Below, in pieces: positions 20,001-52,068 of a stretch of DNA of 64,000 nt; position 1 is the first letter of the stretch; each line of letters opens with the position of its first letter. The stretch spans positions 77,240 to 141,239 of the forward strand of contig NW_018405003.1 in NCBI RefSeq assembly GCF_002113885.1. The letters are read 5' to 3'. The notes beneath the pieces are model-generated. The model did no database searches. It was given only the letters and a program-made list of their open reading frames with translations, and was not told the DNA's origin. A program made the position numbers and the translations under genes. Origin of the DNA: Mizuhopecten yessoensis. Lineage: Eukaryota.

Positions 20001-23000
20001 CGTAAATCCGCTGAACTTGATTTTATAATAAATTCAATTACTATTTCTTGCTTCCATTGTCTGAGTATACAATTGAGCAGAATGTATCGGTTCCTCCTTA
20101 AAACATCACACAGAATTCGTTATATAACTTGGCATATGGTGGTAGGCGAATATAATCCGGTCAAGTTGTCCCGAGAAACTGTTATAAAAGGGCAGATATT
20201 TCCCCGGATTTTCGGACGAAACACTCTACCTTAACTTATTTCCCACTCTTTTCACTACGTTAATACTGACGTCATCTATTATGATTTCACACATTAACAA
20301 CAAACGGATACACGAAGTTATAGGCACGGTCTCATCTTTGTTATTAAATATTGCATATTTTCAAATATGTCAACCATGCATTAATGCGTGATGGGAAATA
20401 AAGAATACCTCAATACCTTAATACGTTCGAGTCTCTCTTTCTCGCGACAGAAACTTCGAGGATGGATTCACCCTTATTTGTTATTACCAATGTTGTATTC
20501 AGAAGTATTTTTACGGTGTATTTCTTCTGAGAATTATTTCTGCAGACATATCTGGAGAGGACTTTTCTATGTTTGTATGCACTTGTCCATGGATTTGTGC
20601 ATGTATCTCATACATATATCATCTTTTAAAGCTTTTTAAAATAAGGATTTTTCTGAATAAATATAACGATTTTGCTGCGTAACTATTCTTTTGTGTGAGT
20701 ATCAATTTTGAAATAAGATAATTAATGCAATTTTGATTTGAAAAAGCATGTCACCAAAAATGTCTAATCGCTTTGTCCTCGGATGAACGTTATTACTTGT
20801 AAAACACGCTGAGTGACAACAATTTCCAGGAATCTTGAATATGATTGGCCCTCAGCCTTCTATACCTCGTCCTATTAATACTGATATGTGTACTAGAGAG
20901 GAGGCGGAGACGGGGTTCCCCAACATCAGTTACATGCACTTGACCTTGTAATGTCCGTACACATGTATTACACATAAACTTTTTCCTCTTAAGTGAGAGA
21001 ACTTGTCGCGGGGTGAACACACTCCTCGACAACACTATACGATGGTACGGCATTTGATGTGTTAGAGTCGCTATGGATGTTTTGGACACAGAAACGTCCC
21101 GTACGATGTGCTCTAAAGAACAACCATCGACCACTTTCTACCTATGTGCCTATATGTGCTATATTTACGGATATCGAATCGAGGACATTTTGGTAAGTTA
21201 AAAAAAAAATAATGAAAGTTATTGTGAAATATTTTACTTTTTTTTCTGGAATGTACTTTATGGTGGAACATTTGATTACACATTATAAATGTGCATATTA
21301 CCTTTGTATTGTGATTTCACAATCACATTTCATATTTGTATTGTGACGTCATGACAATTTACAAATTGAACGGTAAACACTGCAGTAATTCAAAAATAAC
21401 AAATACCGGCACTACCGTCTTTAGTGCTGCTTATAATTCAATGTCCTCTTCCCGATTTATCGCGTATAAATGTATACCTCGCTAAACAACGTTATTTGAG
21501 TACTGTATCACGAGTGCTGGAGTCGCGTGTCCCCACCCCTGTACAAATAAACACGTTTTCGGACTTGAGCAAGGCTATTAACTGATTTTGGTTGCAGTAG
21601 TTTTGCTAGTTTTCAAGATTACTTTTGGGAGAGGACTTTAGTTATGATAGTGCTGTATAATTTACAATGACGTACTTCGTTGATATTAATGTTATGTGAC
21701 TTGATTAAGTAATATTAACCGAATATATTCGATGAATCACAGGTGTCGACATTACATCATCCGGTTCGGATATATATAAAATGAACTACAAGAACGTCAT
21801 TTTTAGCAGACGCCTAGGTTGTAGTACGCTACCGCGTAACAGAAGAATAATATAATTTTCTTTGCAACACACAATTTAGTAAAAAAAAAATGTTGAACAA
21901 TTGTCCAGTGGTTTTCGGTTTTATTTGTGATTATTTTCTTGTCTATGGAATTGCCTAGTAGTTGTTGATCACGCAGACGGGTTAAATTGGGAGAACCTGA
22001 ATAATTAAAGCTACTTTAGCCAGTGGCGGGGTAGCTGTAATAAATTATGCACCCACTCCTTTAATACCTCCCATCTGAGGGGGACAAACATATATCCTGC
22101 ATCAGTCTCCGACTGGTCAGTCGTAACCTAAATGTGTTAGGGTCGGTATATCATTTTTAAAGGTGTATTACCTGTACAATTGTCTTGGCACATTTAAGCA
22201 ACATCTGTGTATTGTGTGTGGTGACCGAGTTCTAAACCACAAAGGGTCGTGTGAAAAATGGAAGAAACCCCAACTTTCAATTACAGACACACCTCTACAA
22301 GTCGATTATACAGATGGAGGCTGGTCTACGCAGGGTTTGTTTATTAAACAAAATGCGCACGATTGCAGGGAAGAATTTTTCTACAGGATTTTTCATTTTT
22401 TCTTTTGTCAATTACCAAATAGTTTGGAGGAAAAAACACGCTTCGTAAACCTTTATATTAAAAGGGAAATAGGGTAAAGTTGTGCGGTAGTCATTCAATA
22501 AATCAAATATTCTTTCTCCCAAAGAGCAGGGTGGTGGGATATTAAATTGATTATATAATTGAAAAAAACACGGTTTAACGTCTAATTTATTGATGCAAAA
22601 AGCTTTTTTTTAACAAAACTCATACAATTAATAACAGTATAATAACCGATACATAAGATACTTTCAAAAGTAATACCACAGGATTTTTGTTATTTAGATA
22701 TCGTGGATTTTCCCAAGCATCTTTACTACGAGGCCAATGTGGTGGCATAATATATAGGTTTATATTTTGACACACTTATCAATATATACCCCAACCAAGA
22801 TTGCATTTCCATAGAAAAGTAAGGATACGATTATTAATTTTTGCTTGTGATATGTTTAAAATGCAAGTAACAAAAGTTAGGTCAATTTGAAAACAAAATG
22901 ATTTTGGTTAATCTTCTTCTGTCTAAAAAATATAAAAACAAATGAGTACTAAAATGTTAACAAAACAATAATCAGATACTATGATGAGTATGCTTGAGTA

Positions 23001-25943: not shown

Positions 25944-26171
25944 AAGGGGTGGGCCACGGTGGCCAAGTGGTTAAGGCGTCGGGCATTTGCTACCACTAGC
26001 CCTTCACCACTGGGTCGCGGGTTGAGGCCTACGTAGGGACAGTCACCAGGTACTATCCGCACGTCACGTCGGTGGCTTTTCATCGGGTACTCCGGCTTTC
26101 CTCCACCATCAAAACCTGGCACGTCCTTAAGTGACCAAAATTGTTAATGGGACGCAAAATCCAGACAAATA
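25944..26171 (+). mobile_element. tRNA-derived SINE with V-domain-like core and target-site duplication
   Basis: A-box GGTGGCCAAGTGG, degenerate B-box GGGTTGAGGCC and core GGGTACTCCGGCTTTCCTCCACC. Flanked by TACACTTCGGAG (25932-25943) and TACGCTTCGGAG (26172-26183). Confidence 0.85.
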
Positions 26172-26894
26172 TACGCTTCGGAGCCTACACCCACCGCAGA
26201 ACGAGGCTTACAATTTACCTCATATTGGGTTCTATCCGCAGATGAAATTAACCTCCAATTACCATCGCTTTCTTTAATGTCTTTGAGCGAAGGCATGAAC
26301 AGTATTATTGATAGTTCGTTAACACCAGATTATTGGTCTTGGTGCCTAACAACAAGAACAAAATTAAAGCGTAGAACATGTTCCAGGAATAAAAACCTCA
26401 CAACATTTCCATAGCATGAGTAAACAAGAATAGGAGAATCGAATTAAATAATTACTATATCTGTCTATGATATAAGGAAGATAGAAACTCTATGATATTA
26501 GGAATATAAAATCTCTATGATCTTACGAATGTTAATACTCAATGTTAATAGTGATATGAATAGTCTATGGTTTCATCATGCAATAGTCGACCTTTACTAT
26601 AAATAAGGCATTCCCCAGACATGTCAAAAAAATCAGTCGTCATTTTGAAAATCTAGATGATACAAGGGTGTCTAGATAAACGATAATGTGAACGCTGAAG
26701 GTAGATCAACACTATATTTAACAAGCCTACTGCGCATGTGCATTACCTGTCCTGATACGGCACTCCTAAAGTCATTTCGTCATGCCACCACGGTGATGAA
26801 GTAGACCGGTCTGGGAATTATATCCGTAATTCTAGATAATGATCTAAGACCAAAATTGTTCAAATAATGCATATTTAAATAAAATACTTCCATT

Positions 26895-31809: not shown

Positions 31810-31900
31810 GCGTACCACGTGACCGGCGATGAACCAATGAGCTCTCACTTCAGATCCCGTATACTTCAATCGAGGTGACACAGTTTAGCCAATGTACAGT
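31810..31900 (+). promoter_or_regulatory. Candidate promoter upstream of the short first exon
   Basis: CCACGTGAC E-box at 31815-31823 and CCAAT boxes at 31834 and 31889, in a locally CpG-richer stretch about 270-350 bp before ATG 32164. Confidence 0.5.
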
Positions 31901-32163
31901 TGTGTGAGGGGATCTGATGTATGCGAGTGGAGTGCGCTAGATGTGCACGGAATTGTCATCGCTGTGTTCGTTCGTATGTGGAATTTATGTGGCATATTTT
32001 CACTTTAATGTCCAGGAATTTACTGGGGTTGTGATTCGATGACATTACTTTAATGTAACAGACGGAATATAAACTTGCTATTGGTGTTGAAAGGCGCCGT
32101 GTCTGAGCTTTAAGCTCTGTAGGTCACAACGAGACTTGATCGTCAACACTGTAAAACGACAAC

Positions 32164-32217
32164 ATGATTAAATTAGAACCGGTGTGTGTTCCCGGCAATA
32201 ACAACGCTATAACGCAG
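32164..32217 (+). CDS. Alternative short first coding exon (MIKLEPVCVPGNNNAITQ) of a Nrf2-type soluble isoform; 642 aa when joined to 44236
   Basis: ATG at 32164 is followed by 54 nt ending in a perfect CAG|GTAAGT donor, phase 0, in frame with the [11 protein letters not shown] exon. It lies downstream of E-box and CCAAT elements. The layout mirrors vertebrate NRF2 exon 1 (MMDLELPPPGLPSQQ|DMDLIDILWRQ). Confidence 0.65.
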
Positions 32218-32499: not shown

Positions 32500-32595
32500 C
32501 ACCGGAAGTAAATCAAATGAAGGAAAACTACACAATACGCATGCGCCATATGACGTCAATTTCTAATTCGCTGATTCACACACACGACTTCCGCT
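32500..32595 (+). promoter_or_regulatory. Candidate second promoter or enhancer upstream of the Nrf1-type exon
   Basis: ACCGGAAGT ETS site (32501-32509), CGCATGCGC NRF-1-like site (~32538-32546), perfect CRE TGACGTCA (32551-32558) and a second ETS core ACTTCCG (~32587), all within about 95 bp. Confidence 0.5.
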
Positions 32596-33072
32596 GCTAT
32601 TGGACATACTTTGAGGAATATTCTCGAATGTTTGTAAATACTGCTGGTGACATTTCGTCATATTTTGTTGAGTTATCATACACGGGGCGAAAGGTGCACA
32701 TTTAGATGAAGGACAATTCCATTTAACTGAAAAAGGCATGTGCGTGTCTCACGGCAGACGAACTGTCATGGCATCCAAGTACACAACTACAACAAACACC
32801 TTCTTAGTTCATCGGAATTAATTAGATATTGTGGTATATATTTTGATCATCTTGAAGGGGATTGAGATAACTATACATCTTAGTCATTTTCTCTACAACA
32901 GGAATTTTGAAACGGCATTCAGTGACTGGTTTCATACCATTTCCACAGTTAGGGGGCGACGCGAAACAGAACAAAGTGCTTTGTGTTTACTTATGAACAT
33001 GGACACGTGAGCCCCATTGCGGGTGTTTATGACATATAACTTGTTATCACGGAAACTCAGATAGCTGCTGGC

Positions 33073-33642
33073 ATGAGATTCAAGGAGTATTTCGCTGACG
33101 GATTGCTCAACATAGCTATTCTCCTTAGTTTACTGAGGACAGATTTGAACAATGTGGTAGACCGTAATTACAGGCATTACCCTGAAGTCCAGGACATCCT
33201 GCATGGACAGACTGCTGCGATTTCTTTAACCAATTTTAATAATTACATTGATTCTCTTCATGGACGAATTCATCCCAAATCACCTGACAATAATATTGAT
33301 ACCATTATTCAAGATTTGCGTTCCCTAAGTCGGCTTGGTAACTGGCAAAGAACGTCAGACAATGGAAACAATGGCGGTAGGGGTATCTCTGCTTTTCTTG
33401 CCAGCACGTCAACATTGATACAGCAACCTGTAGTTAGCATTAACAATCAACATAATGATAATAATAATAACAATGAAGATGTGGATGAAGGGGACATTCA
33501 GGACGATGAGCTGACAGCTGCATTAAACCAAGGAGATGAAATTGAAAACAATGCACATAATGAGTTTTCTCTGTATGAAAACAATGACTTTGGATCTGGG
33601 GCAGCATCTCCTGACCAGCAGACAGAAGAGCCGACGTCTGAG
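33073..33642 (+). CDS. NFE2L1: Nrf1-type N-terminal exon: NHB1 transmembrane signal-anchor, HPKS motif, NHB2 with putative DDI cleavage site, acidic linker
   Basis: [50 protein letters not shown] aligns by eye with human NFE2L1 MLSLKKYLTEGLLQFTILLSLIG..PPLREIILGPSSAYTQTQFHN..IHPKSID. The donor GAG|GTATTG falls after codon 190 (phase 0). Confidence 0.88.
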
Positions 33643-36600
33643 GTATTGCCAAAGCCCTTAATTGAAGTCACAACAAAAGTGCTTTTCAAAAGATAACATC
33701 TTCATGATATTGCTGCAATTGATTGCTATTTATTTTCTATCGTTTTAATAAGATTACCGTAATTGCCGGGAAACCCTTTTTGAAAAGGCTAGATATATAT
33801 CGCTGGTTAAATTGCTTCAAATGTATTCCAGTTCTGATGATAAATTAGCTTGCAATTGAGGCACATGCAGGGTTGACAGAAACTAGTCCTTTATGCTCTG
33901 TTGAGGAGGTAGAAAATGAAAAGCTGTGTATTATCAAACACAAGGAAACAATAAATTTAGTAGTTTCCATGCTTTTTAGTTTCAGCTACATGTTGATACA
34001 TATACGTGTCTTTCAAAAGGAGGAAGTTTGATTTGGGGAAAACCAGGGACTGATGTGAAAATTCACCAGTATCAAATATTAGTTTAACATCATAGATCTT
34101 CAAAGCTATTCATTCAAAACTATCTATTTTGTACAAATGTGCATCGTGATAACATTAAACCCAGTTGTTATCAATCAAAATTAGCAACAAAGAACACAAA
34201 CATCGTGATTTCAGAAAACACTTGATCATGAGGGTATTTTTGACCCCCAAAAATTTGACTCTTGATTTTGAAAGAACCTGTCTATTTGACTTGTGTTTTA
34301 ATAACCCTTTGAATTTTAAAGGTAATATCAACATGCTTTAAAATCAATATGAGAAGGAGTCCTTTTTTCTGTATAATAATGAGCTTGGGGTGTTGGGTGA
34401 CCTGTTGGATAACAATCTTGTCTTTCACCAAGGTGGTCAGGGTTTGAATCTCATAATGGACATACAAATGTGCGGTCACCTGCCCTTTCCGGGCTGCTTC
34501 AGTTTTATCCCACATGAACCTGAGCCCCTGGACACCACACCATCCACTTATGATCCAGGCCAAACTTTTTGCTCTTACCTATTTTTAGGATATATATATA
34601 GGAATGTAAAAGCTATTAATTCTCTGTAATCTTTTAATAGGGAGACTAATTTGCTATGATTCTATATCTAGTTTAACATCATATTTAATACTAAAGGTCC
34701 TTCAAGGATACATACATATGTACTGTAGGGGGCATTGTGATGTATTGCCTCCCTGTAATAGCGGAAGGCTGATGTCGTCTTACTGACGACGAGTTGTCAA
34801 CTTACTGACGACGAGTTACCTTGAGTTGTTTCAATTACCCAAAATGCCGAACATTTAGAAATGAATAACAACTGAAACCATAATTTTTAAAGTACTTTTG
34901 TCCAACCTTGGAAAACCCATTGCCTTCCTCACCAGCTCAAATATTCAATACCAAGGCCAATAGCTGTCTTTCCAACGGCAAACAAAAAGTTTGTAAGGAA
35001 GTAGAGAGAAAATATAAAGATCCCAAATGTTGCATTGGGTTCTTCAGATATAATTATATAAAACAGGCAAATTTACTTTGAGACCTATGTTTCGGGCTAC
35101 TAGGTTTTATATTTTGATGATGGGGTGTAAAAAATAGTATAAAAGACAACGAGAAACAAATACATGCATGCTTACCTTAATTAGTCTTATGATAAGTAAC
35201 AACTGGGGGGGGGGGGGGGGGGGCGGAGACCCAACGTCCCTGCAAGGAAGTCAGTTCCATATACATATATGCATATGGCGGTAGGGATCCTGGGGTGGAT
35301 ACCTTAATGGTATTCAACAGTGCTTATAGGGGAAAGCAGAGCAACGTAGGATGTAAATCAAACATTACATTTTGTACCGCCCAGATTCATAGGTGTTGTT
35401 GCTCATATCATCATTTCTATTTTCATTTAGTCTTATGATAGTATGATCCTGTGTTATTTGCCTGAAGATAAATTTAAACTTGAAACTTGATGGATGATTG
35501 TTGAAGGGTTAATAAGTTTTGTACGTAGATGTCAGTTTATCATAGACAGGATAATAAATCATGAAAGATGTACATGTATAAATTAACATCAGGGGAGACC
35601 ACCCATTGATCACAACTCAGCTTGGACAGGTAGATATGTTTCTACAATTTTTTTCAATAACAAAATATTGATACGAAGGGCCAAGAATCATTCATCACTG
35701 TCAAAACATACAGTAAATCAGTATTAGAAACTGTTATCTAAAACAGTTGTACAGATATCAGCCTATTTGTCCGTTTTCTACGGGTTCTATAAACTAGGGC
35801 TGGTCTGGGTAATATATATCAGTCCCGATACGATATTGACATATTCTTCCTCCAATTGACTTTTATGTCCTCCGTACTATGAAACACTTAATGAACGTGT
35901 GATACTAATTATTAGCCATTAGAAAATATAAATGAAAGAAAACGGAAGTCAGTTTATCGATAGAAAATATGCTACCTATTAAAAAAATCCTTATTTTTCT
36001 TTATTCGTCATTTAAGATATGTTTTTAAATTGAAGTTATAAAACAAGACACAATGATTTTTTCAGAAAATGTTGTGATTTTGTGAATCTAACTCCAGTGA
36101 AAATTTCCCTATAAACCGTGGTGGTACAACAATTATACAGCTGTAATATCACTTCTTGTGAACAGGTTTGAAGGCAGACATTTAACCATCATTGCCATAA
36201 AATGATCTAGAATTGTGATAAGTATGTCTCCCCTTCGAATGAAGGGAGACATTGTATTTCTACTTCTAGTTCTTCTAATCTCAACTTGTCCGGGCCATAA
36301 CTTTTAAACCGTTAAATATATCTTGATGAAACTTAAGGTATGCATGTATCGCCCACAGAGGTGTGCAGTGCACTGGAAATAGGTCACTGTGACCTTCACC
36401 TTAAGATCAAAGATCAATTAAGTGCAACATTTTCAGTAAAATCTTGTCCAGCCCATATTTTTTTTAACCTTTAAGATATCTTGATCAAACTTGAAGTATA
36501 CCTTCATCACCCACAGAAGGTATGCAGTGCAATGGAATGAGGTATCTTGCTTCACTATATAAAGAGTTATGGCCCTTTTGCTTACTTTTAATACTGATGT

Positions 36601-39600
36601 TTGTCATGGATCTTAGGAAGGCGGAATATCTCGCATTGAAATTGGGTCTCGTGCACCACTATATATAGAGTTATGTCCCTTTGTTTATTTTTTATATCAA
36701 AGTTTGTCCACAGCATAACTTCTAAACCGTTAAAAGATATCTCTATCAAACTTGAAATTTCCCTCCATCATCCAAAGAAGGTTTGCAATGCATTGGAATT
36801 AGGTCTTGTGCCCCACTATATACAGAGTTATAGCCCTTTGTTTATTTTTAATACCAAAGTTTGAACAGAGCATAAGTTCCATGTAATTTCACCTATGTTG
36901 ACCAAACTTGCTAAAGTTATTTATCTCGGGAAGCAGGAGTGTCGTATTCTATATTCGGGTCTCGTGCCCCACTGTATAAAGAGATATATATGGCCTTTTG
37001 TTATTTTTTTTTATACCAAAGTTTGTCTTTTGGCTAATAAGGGGAGACATATATAAGTTTCTAGTTATTAATGCATGTCGATTAATGTATGGAATCACAT
37101 CTCGGTGATCAATCCACATCATGATTGCTTTTACAGTTCAAAAATGTCTTTCCAGTATATTATTTAAATATTAAAATTATTTAAAAATTTAGAGTGAAAT
37201 TGGTGACCAATCATAATTAGTAGTAGATTTTAATCTAGGTCAGAGTATACAATACCGGTACCTAGTGATGTACAAATATATTGAATACAGGTAATCAAAT
37301 CGTTTGATTTTGGACCCTATAATAAATTATAAAACAATCTGACCAAAAAATCAGATGACAACAAGTTTAACATGGTAACAGTTTAAACAGCATGTTAATT
37401 CGAAAAATCTATCGGAGAAATTTTCAGATTTGAGACCATAAAAAAAAATCTGTTATTGCATAGAATTCATAAGATATTGAATTGTATGCATTAATTACAA
37501 TTTAAAAAAAAAATGTGACATAAAACTGCCAACAAACCTAAGCCCCTTAAGAACATGGATGTCAGGTCTACATTGTCAAGAGGTATATATTAGAACCTTT
37601 AAAGTTCATCTATTTTCTATCATCGAGGGACTATCAGAATTTAGATTGAAAAAACAACATTTTACCATTTCTTATAAAATAATTAATTTCAGAATCATTA
37701 TGTGTGACTCCTGGAAGCCATTGTTACAGACTTGGTGACCATGTACTCTGTGCGTGATCGCAGTGCACCTTGCACCTGACAGCCCAAAAGTAGGCCAAAC
37801 GATTGTGAAAGGCCATCTGGTACAAGATGTCATCCAAGATCATCAAAATCAATAACAAATGTGACATCTTGTAAGCTATAGCACACGTAGGCCTAAGGAA
37901 CAAGGCTATACCTGTGTAGTAAGATATAGCATACACATATACTGTAGGCCTCAAGAACAAGGCTGTACCTGTGTAGTAAGATATTGCTTACACGTAGGCC
38001 TAAAGAACAAGGCTATACCTGTGTAGTAAGATATAGCATACACTTAGGCCTGAAGATGAGGGCTGTACCTGTGTAGTAAGATATAGCATACACATAGGCC
38101 TAAAGAACAAGGCTATATACGTATACCTGTGTAGTAAGCTAAAGCAAACACATAGGCCTGAAGAACAAGGCTATACCTGTGGAGTAAGATATAGCATACA
38201 TGTAGGCCTGAAGAACAAGGCTATACCTGTGGAGTAAGATATAGCATACATGTAGGCCTGAAGAACAAGGCTATACCTGTGTAGTAAGATATAGCATACA
38301 TGTAGGCCTGAAGAACAAGGCTGTACCAGTAACCTGTGTCATTATGATCATATTCAGGGCTAAAACTGTCCAAGGTCAGATGGCGATGGAGCAGAATCCA
38401 GAAGATAATAGATTTGGTCATTTATTTTTCCTGAAAGTACTTTTTCAACACCACTTGCGCAAAAGACCAGTCTTTGAATGTGACAAGTGTTCTCTAGCAA
38501 AAGAGTTGACAATTCTATAATTCTCCCTGCCTGAAGTTGCATCTGATAGTTTTGTCACTTTTGCAAACAGCAACTGCCATTATTTATGTTTGACTTTAAA
38601 AGCACCCCTGCAGCCACTTTTTGAAGTGCTTTATAGGCACTAATTACTGCAAATATGGTTGTCTATTTTAGAAAGTTGAAAAAATGGAGCCATGAGCCAG
38701 CTGTGGAGCAAATCTACATGAACATAATTGTACACCATCTTGTTAAAAATCTGTTCTCATAAACGTCCTAGGCAGCTCTAAATGTTCTCATTTTTTCATC
38801 TCTGCATATCATTTAACAACGTTTACCCGAGGGCATTTAACAAAATTTACATCAACATTGAGCATTTCCATATAAACCTTGTCAATGTGATCCGTCACTG
38901 AATGGAATATTTTTCTCTCTCTCTCTCTGGGCGGTGAAACACGATACATTTGTACGTAATTAAGTAGAGTAAATGGGATCTTGGGTTACGCCTTGTACAG
39001 AAACTGGTTTGCCAAGGACGTCAGTCTCGGGGTAGATTGTTAGCCTTATATGTGTGAACGTCTTCCACTGAAAGATGATAGAGATTTCATACAGCTTTTG
39101 GGTTACTGTGGCACGACTCGTGTTTCAAGTAAAATGAGACACACCTCGATCTGAAATGCATTACAGGTGAAGTTCACCTTATCGCACAGGTAAAAAGAAC
39201 CAAAACACCTAGCACAGGTACACATAACGAGCGTTAGTTTTACCTGTGATATTGATCTGGCTGTGAGTCAGAACTGAAAAAAGTTCACCAAAATTTTATC
39301 TGTAATCTAGGAGAGATCTGTTACAGGTATCCTAGGCTAAGGAGCCAGTTCTGAGCTTTAAGTGACACAATATCCAACTCTGTCGTCGCAGGCAATAGAA
39401 ACGGATACAAGGACACCCTTATTTCTAAATTAAAATACACGTGTGACATTTCAGCTTCAATTCTGTAATTGGTCAATAAACTCTAATTAACATTGAAACT
39501 CCAACATACAGCATTGTATAATTCACATGCTGTGCCGGAATATTCAGTTTTGCTGGCATATTATTAATTTTATTGACCTAAAACTTATAAATGAATGTGG

Positions 39601-42600
39601 TTGAGTATAGAACAGTTGGAGTTCTAGACAGCTTTGTGCACAAGGCTTATACATATTCTGCAGTATGAAAAGTTGAAAACGGAAAATATCGAATTTTGAA
39701 AATTACCATACCGTACATATTACTGGTTTGACGGCACCTGATCGATGGCTCCCTCAGGTATTTTAGAAATATTAACTCAAATACAGCATTATGCTTATTA
39801 TAAAATTCCACATTCTTTATTCCTGATTACTTGGAAACTACCTAAATAATTGGTTTGCTAGTTTGCCACAGAAATGGTGATATATCCTTTCAGATGAGTA
39901 ATTGAACTGTACGAAAAACAAATTATATGCTGCGAAACATTAAGAGGACTTTAGGACTCCGGCAAGGTCAGAAAAATGTCCGATTACAAGATGTTGGTGG
40001 AGGAAAAATTTGTCTAAAAAAGGCACCCCAAGCTTTAAGCTACTCATTTACTTATAAATGCTCATCAGCACTGTTATTTGTTGAAATACGATATGAAAGA
40101 ATTGCAATGTGTTACATAAAATTTTGATAATAATTCTAAGTATGTACATACATATATATATATACTATGTAGTGTATCCATATATTTTAGTGTCTCATTT
40201 GTAAATTTCTTTTACTTTTGGTTTAGATTTTTTTTTTATGTATATAATATATATTTTGTTTTATTTTTTTCATGTATGTCTATTCTATGTATAGATTTTT
40301 GAAGAAAAGTTATTGTAGGGTCAACATAACTTGTCTGTAATTTCATAAAAACATGCTAAAAAATTTAGAGTCCTTTAAATTCATTAATTGGCATTGAATA
40401 TATATATATTTTAAGCACTAATGATATAAGAATCAGTCAGGCTAAACATTCACTTTTTTTTTAAATTCCAACACCAGCATAACATGTAAGTGTAAGGGAG
40501 TGGGAACATCTTTAGAAGTTATGTTGGAACAGTTGATGTCTAGGTCTTATTTAAGGTTTTAGATTTGGGGTAGCTATATAGTCGCATAGTCCCAACACCA
40601 TCGGTGACAAAGTACAGTACTATATCTGCTGTTTATAACCAGCATGGCCTCGTACCCTTGGGGCTGAAATACTCTCCATCCGTGTGTCGTGAATACACAA
40701 GAATAATGCTATTGTACGGCCAGGTAAAAGTTTGGAGGTAAATTGAATCCCTATTAGAAAGCTTTTATGAACAGGGGACTGAGCTTGCTTTGTAGGTTTT
40801 CAAATCTCTTGTTGTTCAGAGGATCGTAATGTTTTTAATTCTGGTTGGAGCGACATTGGTATGGAACAGCTGCTTTGTTGTCGGCTTAAAATCCCACACA
40901 ATTACATGGGTCTGATTGCGGTAATGATTCGAGCGCGGAGGATCTATAGCATTCTAGGTCACCAGGAAGCTTTATGTCGGGGTCAGTTGCTCTGATATAA
41001 TGGAAAACTATAGAAGCCCATTACGGAGGAAGTTTTCCACTTGATTGATGGAGCAGAAACAGTTTATTGGTCGTAGTGTGACAAACAAGGCCTGTTTTGT
41101 CCTCGTTCTGAGGTTCCAATCAACCAGCTTTGTGAATTTGTTTAAACTATTTGATCGCCAATCAAGATCTACTGATGTTCCTATCAGTTTGCTGATAGGA
41201 AAGAACACAAACCTAGGTATCTGTTCATGATATATATTTAAATATTGGATCGCGATTGTTTTTATGAATTTTTAGAGCATATTTAATTTTTGAAAATATT
41301 TCTAAAGCTAACTATACCGTGTGTTGAGGAGTCGTACTCATCTGACTCAATACACAGGAATACTACAGGTGTATGTATATACACACGATAATGGAAGTTG
41401 GGAAGGGCCAACTTGTGTCATTTAGACTGGGAAAACCAGTCTCTACCTGAAGCCTTCATTTGATGTGAATAATACGTACATACAATCAATCATCACAACT
41501 CAAGTACATGTATTCAAAGTAGGATGTTGAAACTCAAAGCAAATTTTACTGTTGTGTATCTTTTACAAAAAAAACATATATATACATGTTAACTTATACT
41601 CTTAAAATTACCATTTTTAAAAAGGCATTACGTTTTTCAGAGAATAACATTTTTAAAATTTAAGGGTTTTTTCGAGAGTGAAGGATTACTGAATATAACA
41701 CAACCAATACCCCCCCACTCCTTCAAACCAGGAGAAAACTCTGAAAATTAAAAAAGAAACATAAAAACGTCAGTGATGTAAATAGATAAGATTTGTTTAA
41801 ATTGAATCTGAAGTAACGGTCAATGTTGGTTATGGACTGCTTTGTGAACTTTTGACCTTATTGACTGGTGACATCAGCTGTGTACGTTTATGTACATTAT
41901 TTATAAGGTATTCAGTCGAGATGATTGCTGTTATTGAATTACCAATATTTAAAAATTGAGTGAACAGAGCAAATTATAATTAACAGTGTTCCCAGGGGCT
42001 ATCTACATGTATACCTGAGTAAACACGTGTATATCTAGGTTACCTAGAAGAATACATTTCTATCACATGAATTTAGTATTGAATGTGGTAAATTTACCGA
42101 AGTCATGTTTTCCATTTAAGGCCCATTGTGGTGTCAGTAGAACATGTACATGCATGTGAAACTCATTGAAAGGATTTATTTTGATTCCATTTCATATGAA
42201 AATGTTTTCAAAGTTTTATTTTAAAATATCTTAAAATGAAAACTTTGTTACTTCTTGCAGAAGTTCTATTTTTATGTATAAAAAAGAAATGCATGATCCC
42301 AAAAAACACATGTATTGCATTAGGCTTAATTGCATGTCGGGAAATAAAAAAGCGAAATTTCATCCTGCCTATAACTTCTCATAGTAAACAAAAGCTAGTT
42401 TTCTCATATTTCTGACTTTATAGACTTGAAAGCCAAGTGTACTATAACATTTGTACTACCCCAATCACTGCAGATGCTAGCAGATCATTATTGACATACT
42501 GCATATATATATTTGCTGACTTATATCCGAATGTCCAATTAAGTTCAAAACAAACAAAGTATACTGATCAAGCAATATTCTTGTAAAAATGATAAATTAC

Positions 42601-45600
42601 ACATGTACATAAATCTACATGATCAAGCTACATAAGAACCAGGATCTGAGGAAATCTATAGAAGCGTGCTTGAACTTCATGAACATACAATGTGAAGTGT
42701 AAGCTGCTTAGCAAGTAATGAAGACGATATCAACATTTGTGTAAACATGTGATCAATCTCATGTTTTACACAACCAGGATCTGTGGAAATTTTATTGAAT
42801 GATCCACTCCTCCATATACAGCTACTAGGAAAATGTGGATTTCATAGTCAATATTTTATGACCAGTCGGTACACACCTTGTGGTGTAAGTGGTCAATCTC
42901 ACACAGAGAGGTTCTCACCCAATACAGATACAGGATGTGATCACCACCACTCATGTTACAGGGTTTGTTGGTACATTAGTACCGAGAATCCCCTCTCAAC
43001 ATCCTGATTGCAATTGGTTGATCAATCCTTGTGGGTAACGAGGATATATTGATCCTATGAATATATTCCTGAACTCTGTACACGTACTGCACCTTGATTT
43101 GTACAAGTGTAGGTTACTGGCTTATATAAACAAGTCATACTAATGAACGGTCTAAACTGACTTACATGTAAATACAAAAATATTTCATCAAAATACAAGC
43201 TTTTAAATCTGGGACTTAAAATTCTTACTTTTAAAGGGAATTAAGAACATGCCAGAATTTGATAAGAAAATACCCCAAAAATGTTTCGAAAAGTAGTTCT
43301 CGGTTATCTTTAGAAAATTAAACAAATCAGTCACCAACTGTTAACTGGACGATATCCATTGATATTGAGTGGGTGGTAGTGAAGGAATTTTGTTTACTTT
43401 TAATCACAAGCCAGTCAGGGGGGGCCGAGTCAAAACAGAGCATGTATCACAATACATACAAGTACGTTGTATCGGGTATACTTTAAAATTCACTAGCTAG
43501 CTAGGAATTCATATACACGTCAGACATAATATTATTCAATGTATATGATTTATAAAGCATTAACAGATTCTTCAGATGTAAAAATGTCACTACCTTATGT
43601 CCTTTTCAGGGGTTTACAATTTCATATTTCGGCAACAGCCATCAAGAAGACCTTTTTTCATAGCCCTGTGATCTTATGGCTGGCATCAGACTTGTGGAAT
43701 TCATTCACCCATTGTTTTCGTGGAACTGCTTACTTATTAAAGCATGTGTACATATGATTTTAGAGATACACTCCCAATGAAGGAAACATAATTTGCAATC
43801 ATATATACAAGACCGCAGGTTTAAGTCCTGCTTGTACATCTGTCCACTCTTCACCTGTGTGCGGTCCCCAGGTACACGTCCTGTCCACGATGTCCTGTGG
43901 TCATAGTAGTCCATGTAAACAAGGATCTAGATAAAGCAATACTGAGAAACCTGGAATCGGCTCACAGTTCTTAATTATCAGAAGCATTGTTTAATGGTAT
44001 CCAATTGAGCTAGTGCTGAAGATTAAGCTGCCACAGTGCCATCTAGTGTTTGTACATGTGTGTATGCATCTCAAATGCAATGTGTGGTGCAATTTGTCTA
44101 CAGTGTGCTGACAGATTTGGTGTGGGTGTACGACATGTTATTTCCCCAGTTTCCGGGACTAATGTACATACTTAATTACGAGAAAGGTAACAAACTGTTG
44201 GCGTCTTACGTAACGTGTGGTTTGTTTTGTTCCAGGATCTTGATTTGATAGACGTGCTATGGAGACAAGACATAGACCTGGGAGTGGGGAAGGAGGTGTT
44301 CGACATCAACCTCCGCCAGGAGCTGGAACGAGAACGGGAGTTGGAACTCCAGAAGGATAGAGAGAAAGTGAGCACTTTAATAATTATAAGTCTACGAGAA
44401 TTATAAATGAAAGTATATTGCAGAACTTTTATAACTCTTAGACACTTTGTCGATATATAACAAGTGTTCTGGGATAGTATAAAGATAATAGTAGTTTAGA
44501 AAGTGTGACATTCTATATAATGTTTTGGATTAATGTAATTCCAGATTTATATATATATGTACACAGTCTTGATAATTTAAGATATTTGTTTTGCTTAGTT
44601 TTTCAACTGTCACTGAGTGAAACTTCTTTTTCATTGGAATTTTATGCAAATAATAAGTACTGATCATGAGTGCAATCACCATTGATACAGAAACAAGCAA
44701 CATTATTTTGCTAGCTATACTTACAGCATGATCATACAATGTATTGTCCATTGTTAATAATTCATTTTTCACTTTAAAGCAAAAAGAAAGAGAAGTCCTG
44801 CAGTGTAAACATGAAGAGCAGAGATTACAGCAGCAAAGAAGATGGTTGACAGAAAACTTTATGCAGGATACAGAAACAGGTATGGTTTGAAACAAGGATC
44901 CGAGCCAAGCTCGGAATTCTGTCTAAAAATGAAAGGGTGGATAATCATAATACCTTAACCTTACCTTTTGTATGCTACGTACCTCATTGGTTTCCTAAAA
45001 GACGGGATGTACAATCCCACTTACCTTTCTCTCTTTGAAGAATTCTCTTGTATACTTTACATTATGTATTTTACTAGGAATTCAGGCAATTCGGTTTAAA
45101 TTTGTTTCATCTGGTTTTGACCGAGAATACAATGTCTATTTTGCTTAATTAAATTTTCTCAAAACATAGATTTATTGAATTTGCATTGAAGAATAATTAT
45201 GCTAAAACAACCTTTAAAAATAAAAATAATACATGTTTTGGCAATGTGGTGATAATTGTTTTCTTTTCTTTTAGGTGAATGGGTACCCCTTAGAGGAAGA
45301 GCTTCAAGTGGTCAGCCTCCAATTCCGAACAGCCAGCTTCAGGTCAGTTGCTCAGGAAAAAATCATGTTACATTTAAATAGTGAAACTGAGTTCACCTGT
45401 GCAAATTATTAATGGTGTGTGCACTTACATAATCATAATGTAATTCACTCATTTGGAACGTATCGGGATTCAAACTGGAGCTGCTCTGTTGATGATTCTC
45501 GGGACTGCAATAAGTTAATATGTCACTTCAAAGCAGGTCAGCTCCATTGTGTAGAAAAGACAGTCTTTGTTGATTGCTGTAGTTTTTTGTTAAGTTTCCA

Positions 45601-48600
45601 TTGTGAACGGTTGACATGTGTTTACACAAACATTACATGAGGTGGTATCTGAGAGGTGAAATGTACATTAAGTCAATAAAATGTTAGTATATGTACTGCT
45701 GTTCATGTCGTGTTCTTTGCTGACCTGTACGTGTTTGTGTACTTACAGAACTTTATGCCATACGATAACAACATGACTGTGGTGAGCGAGCCCCCGCCCC
45801 TCGAGGGAGATTACGGAATGCCGGAACATCAGTATCAGCACACGTCTCAAACAATGGCACCTCCTCAAGCGCAGCCCTCTCAGATGATGACTGGATTTGG
45901 GCCAGACATGGCTAACTACACAGCAGCACAACAGGTACAAATGTAGTCTAGCTCATATAAAGTCAAGGTCACAGTCATTACTGTACAACATGTAGTCTGG
46001 CTTGTGAAGGTCATGGTGACACTAGCTCCTGTAAAGTTTGAAGTACATACTCACAACAACAAAAAGGAAAAGAAAGACAGACGCCTTGCCTAGGCCAATA
46101 TCCATGAATACATTCCCATGCTTATGCTTAGGTTCTGTGTTCATACTCAGTTTCTTGATCAAGTGATCAATTATTTAAAAAAACAATTTATCAATGACTT
46201 CTGAGAATTTTTCTAGAAACTTGAGAAAGCTGAATAATGTTTTCAGTATTTGAACTTAACTGTGTCACCAGATTTAAGTGAGTTATAAGAAAGTTGGCTT
46301 GCACACAGATTCCATGCATGAGCATAAGAAAGGTTTCATAAATACTGGCCCTGGTAATTTTTTTTTTTTTACAGAACTTGTTAAGGAAGGTTGTCTTGTC
46401 TTACCAGATAATACTGAAGAAGTTTAAGAAGCTGTGTTTGTTATATTCTAGATAGTACTGTTGTAACATGAAGTAATTTAAGCTTATTATTTTTGCAAAA
46501 AAATGGTAGCTTTGATTATGTGTATGCTATAATTAAAGTGAATGTCATCTTCCCAAATTTCAATTAAGTTTTTGAATATTCATCTGTTATGTATACATGT
46601 ATGTATTATATCTAAATTGTTCTCATTGAGTTTGTTTTGTTTTCTAAAGAATCCCGAGCAATATACTCCAATGGAAAGCCTTGAGGAGAGATGGCAAGAT
46701 CTTGTGAACCTGCTGGAACTGCCTGAAAATGATACAAGTATGAGGCCCCCCATGGGGATGGGCCCTGTGAATCAAACTGTGGTGTCCCCTACAGACCACA
46801 ACTCGGTGTTAATACAGAATGCCACTCTGCCTGTGGCCCCTCAGCTCAACAACACACTGCCGACACCGTACTCAAACACTTGTAAGTACACTTCGCTAGT
46901 GCTGTTCAGTAGACAGGTCCAGTGGTCAAACATCACCATAAGTCATAACATTTGTCGTAGTTGAGAAAGAAATGAAGTGAAACTAAATATAAAAATGCAG
47001 ATACATGGCATGTTGGTCTCCTTAATTAAAATGAAGAAATAAATTTTGTTTAAATAAAAAAAAAAGCCCACCTACAAAATATACTAATTTTGTTGTTTTT
47101 TTTCCAGCAATCCCACAGCAGCCGATGACTAACTTCACCTCAACAAGTTCGAGCGAGGGCTGTCCGACCCCTCTGGACTGGGAGCAAAGTGAATTGTTCT
47201 ATAATAATGGAAGTGGTGGGGAAAACCATGCTGATCCCATCGAAGACATGGAGAGTATTCTCCCCGACATAATCCCCGAGGACTACAACCTCACAGAGAT
47301 GGCTCTTAATGATGGTAGGGATTCCCATTATATTACTTTCCAGCTAAAAAATAGGGCTATTTAGTTTGATCAAAGAAATATAACCAAGCTAATAAAGAAA
47401 ATAGGAAGCCATTCTAGATACGCATAATGTCGGTGGGGCGCATAATGTCGGTGGGGTCTTAATGGATATTTTTTGGGGAAAAGAACCCAAATACCTCCCT
47501 GTTTTTATATCTGGAATAAGCCTTGCATCACTATACTTATATGTTAATGTCAATTTATTTCAAGTCCATAAGGAAGTATTGTTTCAACCTGTTTATTAGT
47601 GCTGTGGCCACTTTGATTTGTTTAAGAGATGATACATTTCTTTTCTCTGGTGTTTTCCAGGTTTAAGGTCGATGAGAATGCTTGATGACAATAGCAGTGA
47701 GTCGGGAGTGTCCCTAGGGAGCTCAGAACAGGTACGTTATCTAGTCACTGAAACAACATTGGTTACTGAAACTCATATTCTTCCTAAATATAAATGTCAA
47801 TTTTTTTTTCAAGATTATCAGAGTTTGAGTTAAATAACAATTCTCACTTTTAAACTTCATTTTTTCCCTTTTATTCAAATGTAGTTAAACTGCTGTATTG
47901 TGAATTTGATATCACCGATACATTTAATGCTACTGGATGAAAATACAAAGTTAAATCTTGGGAACAGCCTTATTTAAACCCAATTTTACTACAATTTGCT
48001 CTAAATTCTTAAGGATATCTTGGCCATGTTTTCATTCATTAGGTTGCCTTGATTCCAAACGATATTTCCTGAAGTGAATTCCTTAAGGTCATTGCAGATC
48101 TTCAATAAACCATTTTCTCCAATGTTTTCTACATGGTCACAGTATAGATTGAAGTCACAAACTTTGGTTGCAACTTAAGTAGATTAATCAAACGGGAAGT
48201 ATAACAACTGCAAATCATTTGATCATTGTTTTTCCAGGACCAGTTCAGCGAAGCAGCTATGTCGCCGTTTGATAGTCTGGAGGGTGCCACCGGTGGCCAC
48301 GACTACAGTGGTGGATCGCCAGGCTTCAACAAAGCCAGCAGTTTCGAGCACAACAATTACAGCAAATTTAACGGTGGTGGTAATGGCTACAACAGCGAGG
48401 GAGACAACTACAACAGTGTGGGTGATAGTTATAGCTCGGGAGGCAGCTCCAACGGGGACAGTGCCCACAGCTCCTCTAATGACACCGACTTCAATTTCCC
48501 ATCAACAAAAACGAGCCACAATCACATTCGTCACAATCATTCATACCCCCTGCAGCCAGGTCAGTCTCCGCGCGAGTACAAGAAATACTGCACGTCCATG

Positions 48601-49116
48601 GAGAAAGAACCTCGCCACAAAGGCCCTCATTGTAAAGATTCCAAACGGATACAGGAACTGAAAGTGCCGTTAACAGTGGACGAAATTGTTGATGTACCCG
48701 TTGAAGAGTTCAATGAACTGCTTACGCAATACAAACTTACAGAACCACAGTTACAGTTAATCCGAGACATTCGTAGACGAGGAAAAAACAAGGTGGCCGC
48801 TCAGAACTGTCGAAAACGAAAGTTAGATGTCCTAGTAAATCTTGAGGACGACATGTCAACTCTCCAATCAACTCGTGATCGTCTGCTGCAGGAGCGGCAT
48901 ACCATTGACAAGCAGACACGTGAAATGAAAGACAAATTTAGCTCCCTGTACAGGGAGATATTCCAGTCACTACGCGATGAGCACGGTCGTCCGTACGACC
49001 CGCATTTGTTCTCGCTGCAGCAATCAAGTGATGGAAATGTGTTCTTGGTCCCCCGTAACATCACAGCAGATGAACAGCAGGCTAAGAGCAAGAAGAAGAA
49101 AAATGAGAAAAAGTGA
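33073..49116 (+). CDS. NFE2L1: CNC-bZIP transcription factor, Nrf1/NFE2L1-type (ER-anchored) isoform. join(33073..33642,44236..44367,44780..44879,45275..45342,45749..45934,46650..46881,47108..47314,47661..47731,48238..49116); 2445 nt, 814 aa
   Basis: All introns are GT..AG with matching phases (0,0,1,0,0,1,1,0). Motifs occur in the family order: NHB1 anchor, [20 protein letters not shown], Neh5-like [14 protein letters not shown], sequon-rich region, ESGVS, EGATG, HNHSY, CNC + bZIP ([21 protein letters not shown]), Neh3 ([14 protein letters not shown]). Confidence 0.9.
36223..37066 (+). mobile_element. Non-autonomous Helentron/HINE-like element in the long intron
   Basis: 5' TATGTCTCCCCTTCGAATGAAGGGAGACAT hairpin, subterminal inverted copy AGGGGAGACATA at 37040-37051, CTAGTT end, and degenerate internal repeats (CTTGTCC..CATAACTT..AAACTT). 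Confidence 0.7.
37875..38325. repeat. Minisatellite, 50 bp unit, about 9 copies
   Basis: AAGAACAAGGCTATACCTGTGKAGTAAGATATAGCATACATGTAGGCCTG at 38161, 38211, 38261 and neighbouring positions. Confidence 0.95.
44236..44367 (+). CDS. NFE2L1: Shared exon: Neh2 DIDLID/DLG element
   Basis: tttgttccag| [44 protein letters not shown] |gtgagc; 132 nt, phase 0-0. Confidence 0.95.
44780..44879 (+). CDS. NFE2L1: Shared exon: Neh2 helix and first part of the ETGE motif
   Basis: actttaaag| [33 protein letters not shown](G) |gtatgg; 100 nt, phase 0-1. Confidence 0.88.
45275..45342 (+). CDS. NFE2L1: Shared exon: completes the ETGE motif (GEWVP...)
   Basis: ttcttttag| (G)[22 protein letters not shown] |gtcagt; 68 nt, phase 1-0; the spliced sequence reads DTETGEW. 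Confidence 0.9.
45749..45934 (+). CDS. NFE2L1: Shared exon: P/Q/M-rich linker
   Basis: acttacag| [10 protein letters not shown]...NYTAAQQ |gtacaa; 186 nt, phase 0-0, open and GC-richer than the flanking introns. Confidence 0.85.
46650..46881 (+). CDS. NFE2L1: Shared exon: Neh5-like activation motif and start of the NST glycodomain
   Basis: ttttctaaag| [25 protein letters not shown]...PYSNT |gtaagt; 232 nt, phase 0-1; resembles NFE2L1 DLEQQWQDLMSIMEM. Confidence 0.9.
47108..47314 (+). CDS. NFE2L1: Shared exon: NST/acidic region
   Basis: tttttccag| (S)[11 protein letters not shown]...[10 protein letters not shown](G) |gtaggg; 207 nt, phase 1-1. Confidence 0.88.
47421..47456. repeat. Perfect 18 bp tandem duplication in an intron
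   Basis: CGCATAATGTCGGTGGGG x2. Confidence 0.9.
47661..47731 (+). CDS. NFE2L1: Shared exon: Neh6-like beta-TrCP degron region
   Basis: gttttccag| (G)[23 protein letters not shown] |gtacgt; 71 nt, phase 1-0; resembles the DSDSGLSL/DSGIS degrons. Confidence 0.88.
48238..49116 (+). CDS. NFE2L1: Terminal exon: CNC domain, bZIP and Neh3
   Basis: tttttccag| DQFSE...HNHSY...[20 protein letters not shown]...[23 protein letters not shown]...leucine zipper...[21 protein letters not shown]...TGA. Confidence 0.97.
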   Translation, partial: DQFSEAAMSPFDSLEGATGGHDYSGGSPGFNKASSFEHNNYSKFNGGGNGYNSEGDNYNSVGDSYSSGGSSNGDSAHSSSNDTDFNFPSTKTSHNHIRHNHSYPLQPGQSPREYKKYCTSMEKEPRHKGPHCKDSKRIQELKVPLTVDEIVDVPVEEFNELLTQYKLTEPQLQLIRDIRRRGKNKVAAQNCRKRKLDVLVNLEDDMSTLQSTRDRLLQERHTIDKQTREMKDKFSSLYREIFQSLRDEHGRPYDPHLFSLQQSSDGNVFLVPRNITADEQQAKSKKKKNEKK

Positions 49117-50351
49117 ACGTGTTTTCAGAGCTCAAGCAGCAATTTGCCTCACAGGGTTCCTGACCTTTGACCTTAGTACTAGAGCCTCATCACTGAGGAT
49201 TCAGGGACAAAACACTCAAAACTTTTGGTCCCATGAACATTATTGTTTCATTTAAGTTCGTAAATCAACATTTGCAGGGAAAATTGGTAAAAGACATAAA
49301 GGTGTGAACATTTTCATAAACAGTAGTCACATTACTGGTTTTGAGTAGAGGACTACATGCATACAGGTTGTTAAAAGAGACAGACTAATATAGATCTGCA
49401 GGATCTCAACTGGTCTTTATCAGTGTTTGAAATATATATTGGGATCATTAAAACAAGAATTTCAGTCCTACAATTCATAATACGCCTGATGTACCAGGAA
49501 CAGTAGACTATACAAAACGTTTAAAGTCTACAGGGTAACATATGAATTCAATATCATGTTTCCTTCCCCCATGAATTTTGATGACTGAACCTGATAAAAA
49601 ATGAGATTTTATTTGGTACCTCAGGATTTCAAAAGATCTGCATAAGCATCTGTGGTTTGGTATGGAAAATTTTGGCCTGAAATTCCAGGTTTTTTGTGAT
49701 AAAGGTGCTTTAATTATCGATTTCAAATCGAAGTCATTAGTAGGGTGTACATTTTAAAACACAATTAACTTATATTGATATGCATGGTCAATAATCATTG
49801 AAGAAAATCTAAATATTACTTCCTTTTTGTGAAATTAACTGTATCTCATGATTCAGGGAGTAAATTTAATTGAAATTCCAAAACAGATGATTGTGACTCT
49901 AATATTGATGGATTTTTTCGTTCTATTGTTATATTATATCCAACCCCAGTACCATGTGCTAACATTGTGATGAGTATGTCACCGGTATATATTGAAGTAA
50001 AACCTTACTAGCCAGTGGTTAACCATGTAGAGATATCTGCACTGCAATGGTTTATGATAATAAACAGCAAGATCTCCACCGGCAATGTTGAACTTTATAG
50101 TGAGGTGATGAGCATCAGTGGTTAACAATAGCAAGAATAGGTTAATCCACATCAAAGGGGTTGGTTACACTTAGGTTGACATCATTCCATATCATTGTCT
50201 TTCATTGGTTACAAATATTGTAGTGCTGACTTCTTGTTCGTGTTTGGTAGATCTATATCATTCATATTACTTTCTTTAGCAATTTCTCTTTTGTTTCTTT
50301 ATGTGTGTTTGTGATTATGGGAAAAAAGTTTGACTGTTTTCTGTTGTTTTG

Positions 50352-50357
50352 AATAAA
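50352..50357 (+). other. Candidate polyadenylation signal of the CNC gene
   Basis: AATAAA followed by GT/T-rich sequence about 1.2 kb after the stop; another AATAAA is at 50059. Confidence 0.3.
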
Positions 50358-52068
50358 TGTTTTGTTAATTGTGTGGAGTAAAAATCAAATTAAAAATTGT
50401 GAGTCCAAGAAATGGGGTATGTACTTGTTACTGAATGTATTGAGAGAGACCGAGAGAGAGAATTTTACTTCTATTTGAGTAATTGTAACAAAGAGGCCTG
50501 TTGTTGTCTGGGTAGGTTGCTATGTGCTGTGGAACCTTGTTTGTCTGCACTCTTTTTGTGCATTTAGAAGCAGAATTACAAAGAAATGATTTACTACACA
50601 TTCAGAAAGCATATGATGTTTAATCAGTGGTTGCATAAGTCCTAACTAATTTTCAGAACAAATTTAATATAATTGAAAAGATATTGTTCTGTAAAATTAT
50701 TCCACTATTATGTTTGTTTGCATCAAGAAAGTGAGTTTTACAAAATATCTGAGTGCAGATTGACACGGTTCCTTTGTGACATATGTTACAGTGTTCATTG
50801 ATTGCAGTTTTGTTTTCACAGTTTTTTCTGTCTTACAAAACTCAAAAAATGGGACACCAGTAGGTTTATTCTTTGGTGTTAGTTTTTACGGCTGAACTGT
50901 TAATATGCCGATTTCATTGAAGTCTGCTAAGATGAACTGTCATATCTGCCCAAGCATTTCATTTTGATAGCATGTAAACATAGAAAATGTATTCAGTTGC
51001 CATGTCCTCCATATTGAGTAACCATGTAGCTAATATATAGATCATAAATAGTGACTGTAATCCATTTATCATTAGTGTGCATATATATGTTTGGTTTATA
51101 CGATTAATAGTACACTTTCTTCATCAGCTACGTCATAATAACATATGTATCATTCTTAATTTTTTTTACAGCTGACATCATATTGAGAGAAATGTTGAAC
51201 AATTTGTTAAAAGATTTTGTTATAAATTTTGTTGAGTTATGATATTTAAAATCTGTTAATGATTATATGTGTTTTGAGTCCTTTGCTAAGTATTTCACCT
51301 ATGTGCCTGCAACTGCTCCCCCCAAAAACAACCTTGAGACGCTCCTTTGACTGGATCAATGAAAATACCATTGCCAACATAATCACCTTGAGTTTCAGAG
51401 GTAGTTAAATCACTCAATCTTTAAATTTTGCTGTAATGAAATCCATCCAGAAAAAAGCCCAAATGGATGTTGAACAACATTGTTCCACTTTTTTGAGGTT
51501 GTTCTAACTGAAGAAGTAGTGTAACTGTAAAGGCTGAAATAACTCTAAAGTGAAAGTTAAGTTCTCAGCAGCTGACATATTGTCACCAATTAACAGTTTC
51601 ATGATAATGGTAAAAGTAGAGGATAAATTGTCTCTTTATTATTTATAGAATTTGTATTGAAGGTAAATATGATTTCTTCACTTTGAAATCCATGTTTTGA
51701 ACAGGAAAAAAGATCTTTTGATAGTTTAAGATCATGGATATTTCTACAAAATAAACCCCAGACAATTAGTAGGTATTGTGCATTGATGATCGCTTTATGG
51801 TAATTCTTGTTAAAGGAAACATCGCTGGATTTTGAATATGAGCAAAAATAATATGCATTTTTAAAAAAAATAATTGGTTTGTTAGATATTTGAAAATCGA
51901 CCATTGCAATTTGGTATTACATTTTGGTTAAATGAGTTTAATTAATTTAATACAAAGAAACTATAATTGATCGTAGTTTGGTTCTTTTGTTAACAACTTC
52001 CGTTACGTCAGAAATTAATACAAGACATGCGTTTGGTCATTGTCTGCCACAAGCCATAGTATGCCTTG

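Follow-up and report, generated by a model that had tools for sequence, protein, structure and literature searches.

The Caenorhabditis elegans gene skn-1 uses alternative first exons to produce ER and soluble forms of one transcription factor, and sequons (N-x-S/T) shared by both are edited in the ER form only (PMC12251208, PMC4987142). The sequons of SKN-1A number four and its HCFC1 motif is intrinsic, in an animal without Keap1. According to PMC12773725, editing of N574 in human Nrf1 creates an HCFC1-binding (D/E)HxY motif that is essential for proteasome-gene induction, and the other eight sites aid CREBBP/EP300 binding; its authors suggest that editing-dependent HCFC1 binding is an adaptation of 'higher organisms', since the SKN-1A motif is intrinsic. 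Vertebrates, unlike scallop, encode Nrf1 (NFE2L1, TCF11) and Nrf2 (NFE2L2) in separate genes. ER and non-ER variants of a single locus have been described for Drosophila CncC, octopus and other invertebrate single-copy Nrf (PMC6155405), and such dual variants have been noted several times (PMC6155405, PMC12285602, PMC6213907, PMC11989980). Among these, PMC11989980 cites a scallop Nrf2-Keap1 study and includes in its alignments the scallop considered here. The literature we searched, accessible in part, yielded no description of CncC editing.

We analysed a 64,000-nucleotide stretch of the Mizuhopecten yessoensis genome (contig NW_018405003.1, positions 77,240 to 141,239; the window). An initial annotation had pointed to dense sequons in four exons (45749-45934, 46650-46881, 47108-47314 and 47661-47731) and proposed that NGLY1 converts their Asn to Asp in an ER isoform, giving an acidic activation domain that a soluble isoform would lack. 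That idea is already in print as the SKN-1A/SKN-1C model (PMC12251208). The exons belong to a CNC-bZIP gene on the plus strand, in which nine exons (33073-49116) splice into an 814-aa frame identical to the database protein P0001, labelled NFE2L1-like isoform X1 of M. yessoensis (Table 1). The Pfam bZIP_Maf match in the last exon scored 68 bits against a cut-off of 22, the protein is 45% identical to bat NFE2L1 over 203 aa, and its CNC-bZIP domain clusters with mollusc Nrf in a tree. Like skn-1, the gene has first exons that give ER and soluble forms. Unlike SKN-1A, its product carries 15 sequons, a latent N-H-S-Y, DLG and ETGE motifs and a full zipper.

Judged by the best-scoring candidates of our genome searches, this locus is the only CNC/Nrf gene in the scallop genome. 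A Pfam search for a second one returned two Maf genes, one Jun-like gene and this locus, and the best candidates scored with a CNC-bZIP query were this locus and one Maf only. Elsewhere in the window, the stretches 26000-30000 and 37900-38330 contain strongly skewed pyrimidine-rich repeats and, in the first intron, a short-period tandem array. The 3' UTR is long: contigs continue at least 2.2 kb beyond the stop (49117-51400).

Table 1 Features of the scallop CNC-bZIP locus, in window coordinates.
Feature	Position	Strand	Basis or remark
Third first exon, known from database annotation (isoform X2, P0008)	21073..21192	+	tblastn 100%
Soluble (Nrf2-like) isoform first exon	31869..32217	+	18 codons from 32164; matches P0007
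ER (Nrf1-like) isoform first exon	32548..33642	+	CDS 33073-33642, 190 aa
NHB1-like ER anchor, residues 7-21	33091..33135	+	hydropathy and alignment with vertebrate NHB1
Predicted DDI-type cleavage motif, F108/L109	33385..33402	+	opposite bat W103/L104 in the multiple alignment of 22 rows
First shared exon, Neh2 DLG motif	44236..44367	+	spliced model, contig joints
Shared exons 44780-44879 and 45275-45342	44780..45342	+	ETGE motif spans their junction
NST-like domain encoded by four shared exons, 11 sequons (the feature under study)	45749..47731	+	
N409 sequon (NAT)	46818..46826	+	sequon in 44/44 molluscs
N463 sequon (NGS)	47206..47214	+	sequon in 38/44 molluscs
Last coding exon, CNC-bZIP domain	48238..49116	+	Pfam bZIP_Maf at about 48673-48948, E=8e-19
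N603 sequon (NDT)	48478..48486	+	sequon in 44/44 molluscs
N622, N-H-S-Y, latent (D/E)HxY HCFC1-binding motif	48535..48546	+	aligns with bat NFE2L1 N542

The exons with the sequons are shared by both isoforms, as had been supposed: the joints 32217->44236, from the soluble first exon, and 33642->44236, from the ER first exon, were seen in contigs of four out of four sequencing runs. The shared junctions, including 46881^47108, were all present as GT..AG joints in the same four runs. None of these runs is recorded as RNA; we presume that they are, and the joints are GT..AG. Contig depths cannot rank the isoforms, and we therefore make no claim about their levels. The third first exon, 23 kb upstream, encodes no strong hydrophobic segment and has a similar N-terminus in Pecten; contigs of the four runs give it no cover and thus no evidence either way. 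Annotations for Mytilus, Haliotis and Babylonia likewise list a long and a short form.

By its sequence, the spliced ER isoform has an NHB1-like anchor of the Nrf1/SKN-1A type. Hydropathy averages 2.00 over 15 residues, compared with 1.95 in bat NFE2L1. The segment is short, which counts against it, with a value of 1.36 over 19 residues (likewise 1.50 in bat). The soluble first exon has no hydrophobic stretch, its hydropathy maximum being 0.57. The predicted cleavage motif reads A-F-L; the multiple alignment places it opposite the A-W-L of vertebrate Nrf1, but pairwise BLAST aligns this stretch differently. Processed Nrf1 begins at Leu104 (PMC7279161). Both isoforms carry DLG and ETGE. With these motifs and no anchor, the soluble form has the features of a Keap1-controlled Nrf2 type, like vertebrate NFE2L2/Nrf2 with its anchorless Neh2. 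It nonetheless differs from Nrf2 in carrying all the sequons, presumably unused. The ER form shares with vertebrate NFE2L1 an NHB1-type anchor, a sequon-rich NST-like region and, some 80 residues ahead of the basic region, an N-H-[S/T]-Y, and it may share the cleavage motif. The NST-like regions of the two have diverged, leaving single sites mostly unmatchable, and the N574-type site alone aligns clearly.

Recounting from the spliced model recovered the same eleven sequons among 20 Asn residues over the 232 aa of the four exons, including the NTS created across the 46881^47108 junction. A composition shuffle gave a mean of 3.1 (P=3e-5), in agreement with the enrichment that the initial annotation had expected; N-x-T sequons numbered 8 against 1.4 expected. 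The excess held in a best-window scan over the whole protein (corrected P=8.5e-4) and under local shuffling in 12-residue blocks (P=5e-5). The cluster is real, but its first-drawn bounds were too narrow, with four further sequons in the last exon (N562, N603, N622 and N796). The ER-only exon (190 aa) has 27 Asn and no sequon against 3.4 expected (P=0.02).

We then scored sequons between ETGE and the CNC domain in orthologues, which are related and whose counts are therefore not independent. In molluscs 317 sequons were expected and 769 found (median 18), with 43 of 44 orthologues individually enriched at p<0.05, so the cluster passes the enrichment test on which the original idea had been staked. 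Other invertebrates had 350 against 146 expected (27/30 at p<0.05; 36 records, six dropped for missing anchor motifs), and vertebrate NFE2L1 94 against 46.5 (9/11 at p<0.05; 17 records, six dropped). The vertebrate Nrf2 control was not flat, which counts against a simple reading: 603 sequons against 389.5 (ratio 1.55; 31/128 at p<0.05) in a set far from independent because it is mostly teleost nrf2a, 119 of the 128 coming from one search. In 14 diverse representatives the ratio was 1.26.

An offset test separated the two families more clearly. In molluscs, Ser or Thr stands at Asn +2 in 45% of cases versus 18-21% at seven other offsets, and Thr in 22% versus 6-9%; Pro at +1 is reduced to 2% from a background of 8%, and nine residues other than Asn have 13-22% Ser or Thr at +2. 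In Nrf2, Ser or Thr is about as frequent at +2 (26%) as at +1 (25%), and the +2 Thr peak is lost (7% and 6% versus 6%). The mollusc ER-only spacer shows no enrichment and a mild deficit (32 sequons versus 45 expected), in counts that cover 15 or 19 ER forms, our first anchor test having missed 'VLSLL' isoforms. A sequon cluster between Neh2 and CNC is thus above chance and conserved. Its density is kept across molluscs, and so are the positions of N409, N603 and N622 (44/44 each) and N463 (38/44). The expected conservation of single sites held only in part, since two of the 11 (N409, 43/43, and N463, 37/43) are position-conserved in most molluscs and the others drift. Where a mollusc sequon column has lost its Asn, Asp is weakly favoured as the replacement (16% versus 11%).

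One sequon stands apart by its context. N622-H-S-Y (48535) aligns with N542-H-T-Y of bat NFE2L1, 198 residues from the end, just as far as N574 should lie in a human protein of 772 aa; the equivalence to N574 runs through bat. A latent HCFC1 motif is present at this N574-equivalent position, and the most important site of human Nrf1 would thus correspond to a residue outside the four exons first singled out. N-H-[S/T]-Y is found in 44/44 molluscs (with Ser in 15 and Thr in 29), in 36/36 other invertebrate records, some of them isoforms or close kin, and in 17/17 vertebrate NFE2L1, and it is lost in vertebrate Nrf2 (0/128); one of the orthologue searches used a query containing the motif. Its third position swaps between Ser and Thr only, as a sequon demands. 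The signature spans molluscs, a brachiopod, an annelid, nemerteans, arthropods, echinoderms, hemichordates, amphioxus and a tunicate. It recurs in a spider, an adelgid, a tunicate, a lamprey and Drosophila grimshawi, whose Cnc has N-H-T-Y where scallop has N-H-S-Y. It is absent from its usual place in the nematomorph Gordionus (P0246) and in one further row.

A set of 132 further representatives contained 68 N-H-[S/T]-Y, 13 D-H-[S/T]-Y, 44 without xHxY, five with another word and two without a basic region. Eleven of the 13 DNA-encoded D-H-[S/T]-Y rows (P0183, P0213, P0232, P0238, P0252, P0253, P0260, P0274, P0275, P0284 and P0285) form one fast-evolving clade inside vertebrate NFE2L1, with support of 100/99 in a 64-row CNC-bZIP tree. 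A long-branched lamprey row with NHTY also falls inside this clade, which has no DLG match and probably belongs to ray-finned fish. The D-bearing NFE2L1 have 19 sequons against 19.1 expected, four of the eleven being short records, compared with 71 against 30.6 in nine N-bearing NFE2L1. Such decay with an encoded Asp is the pattern expected if Asp were the working form and the glycan its route, and the fast clade is likely an NGLY1-independent Nrf1 paralogue. The other two rows, P0193 and P0218 (D-H-T-Y), sit in NFE2L3 on the tree and appear to represent a second, separate hard-wiring; one of them retains 11 sequons. Frog NFE2L3 rows carry NHTY, and our last-match motif rule took other xHxY words in three of four NFE2L3. 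Earlier work had already described N-to-D changes in the genome at further sequons of Nrf1 (bioRxiv 2021.09.11.459891).

Could the cluster be a by-product of an Asn/Ser/Thr-rich disordered region, or of another motif (kinase, O-GlcNAc), and never be glycosylated? The region looks disordered and is rich in Ser and Thr (41/232), and cytosolic Nrf2 is also 1.3-1.5-fold in excess. Against this, the excess survives local shuffling, is found with Asn alone and is confined to +2, with Thr preferred there and Pro avoided at +1, and three sequons are invariant in 44 molluscs despite Ser/Thr interchange. Local shuffles and offset controls rule out a compositional artefact, and we give this reading almost no credence. 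Another account accepts editing but has HCF-1 recruited in both isoforms through an intrinsic E-H-Q-Y (residue 316), with editing tuning its strength as proposed for worm SKN-1. This unedited word lies in a shared exon (45824-45835) and fits the (D/E)HxY consensus. It is present in one of 44 molluscs, whereas N622 is invariant, and in human Nrf1 a Glu placed at the edited position failed to bind HCFC1 (PMC12773725); we regard the account as very improbable.

The glycans might instead act solely as tags for ER quality control and ERAD, by which the long isoform is kept unstable, with Asp a by-product that has no signalling role in molluscs. A role set by glycan number would fit the observation that density is conserved more than position at most of the 11 sites, and so would the very slight preference for Asp in the sequon columns of molluscs. 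What it leaves unexplained is the retention of His and Tyr around N622 in the exact latent HCF motif, the finding that Asp is the sole other first residue with H-[S/T]-Y in NFE2L1/NFE2L3-type rows, and the decay of sequons after Asp becomes encoded; the ER-only spacer shows no excess, although it too should lie in the lumen. We consider the tag explanation unlikely.

The enzymes that sequon editing would need are encoded in the scallop genome. We found an NGLY1 gene with a PAW domain and an open-frame core bearing Cys, His and Asp motifs, a DDI protease gene of three exons with a DSG motif, and the Kelch exons of an HCF-1 gene. In a search for AREs in the 4 kb upstream of 13 proteasome genes, intervals not tied to start sites, TGAC-n3-GCA occurred 11 times versus 4.1 in simulation, with other spacers similar and several patterns tried, and the canonical RTGACnnnGC 7 times versus 5.6. 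One such region (L020, G000:C2762:1171001-1181000), roughly 3 kb ahead of an exon encoding a proteasome alpha subunit, contains a tandem repeat with six ARE-like words at 64-base intervals.

The scallop system very probably operates in the same way as worm SKN-1A/SKN-1C and human Nrf1, because a single gene with two first exons is combined with conserved, +2-specific sequon enrichment and with genes for NGLY1, DDI and HCF-1. Specifically, we consider it highly probable that one CNC/Nrf gene yields an ER and a soluble isoform, and that shared sequons, in the ER isoform alone, are glycosylated and then have their Asn changed to Asp by NGLY1, giving an HCF-1 motif at N622 and added acidity upstream. 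By analogy with human Nrf1 and worm SKN-1A, the long form would enter the ER with the bulk of the protein on the luminal side, become glycosylated, and be extracted by ERAD and destroyed while proteasomes work. Upon proteasome failure it would survive; NGLY1 would leave Asp at each occupied site and DDI would remove the anchor near F108/L109. D622-H-S-Y would then recruit HCF-1/OGT, the upstream cluster, its acidic residues increased from 33 to no more than 44, would help coactivators such as CBP/p300 to bind, and the edited isoform would induce proteasome genes. The short form would never meet the glycosylation machinery, would keep its Asn and would stay Nrf2-like, a predicted antioxidant regulator under Keap1 control through DLG and ETGE. 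The model first put forward is thus supported overall, but the bulk acidification at its centre is probably secondary, because the sequon region already has 33 D/E versus 4 K/R, with 44 acidic residues at most after full editing, and two of 11 sites are position-conserved.

Taken together, the motif distribution and a D-encoding clade that has lost its sequon enrichment point to a broader reading, which we think is probably correct. The change from N-H-[S/T]-Y to D-H-[S/T]-Y may be an ancestral bilaterian switch through which a single Nrf gene could serve as both proteasome sensor and antioxidant regulator. It would have been lost in vertebrate Nrf2, and Asp would have become DNA-encoded in nematodes and in at least two vertebrate lineages, the fast NFE2L1 clade and part of NFE2L3; the NFE2L1 clade would then have lost its sequons and should not need NGLY1. 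This reading is built on motif distribution rather than rooted reconstruction, and we limit it to bilaterians because no cnidarian, placozoan or sponge sequence was named among the hits. In a search covering mostly non-subscription papers, we found no earlier report of an ancestral latent HCF-1 motif or of a vertebrate clade encoding D-H-[S/T]-Y, and no paper on a DHTY paralogue or, for the Nrf of molluscs, on its sequons or HCF motif.

The editing mechanism is known from worm and mammal only, and our comparison extends its signature across invertebrates. That distribution argues against the 2025 suggestion, made in PMC12773725, of an adaptation of 'higher organisms', and it singles out one residue for testing in fly or mollusc. 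The predicted pre-edited, NGLY1-independent vertebrate Nrf1 paralogue would bear on models of NGLY1 deficiency. For bivalve biology, the two-isoform arrangement means that 'Nrf2' assays placed on shared exons would measure two different regulators together.
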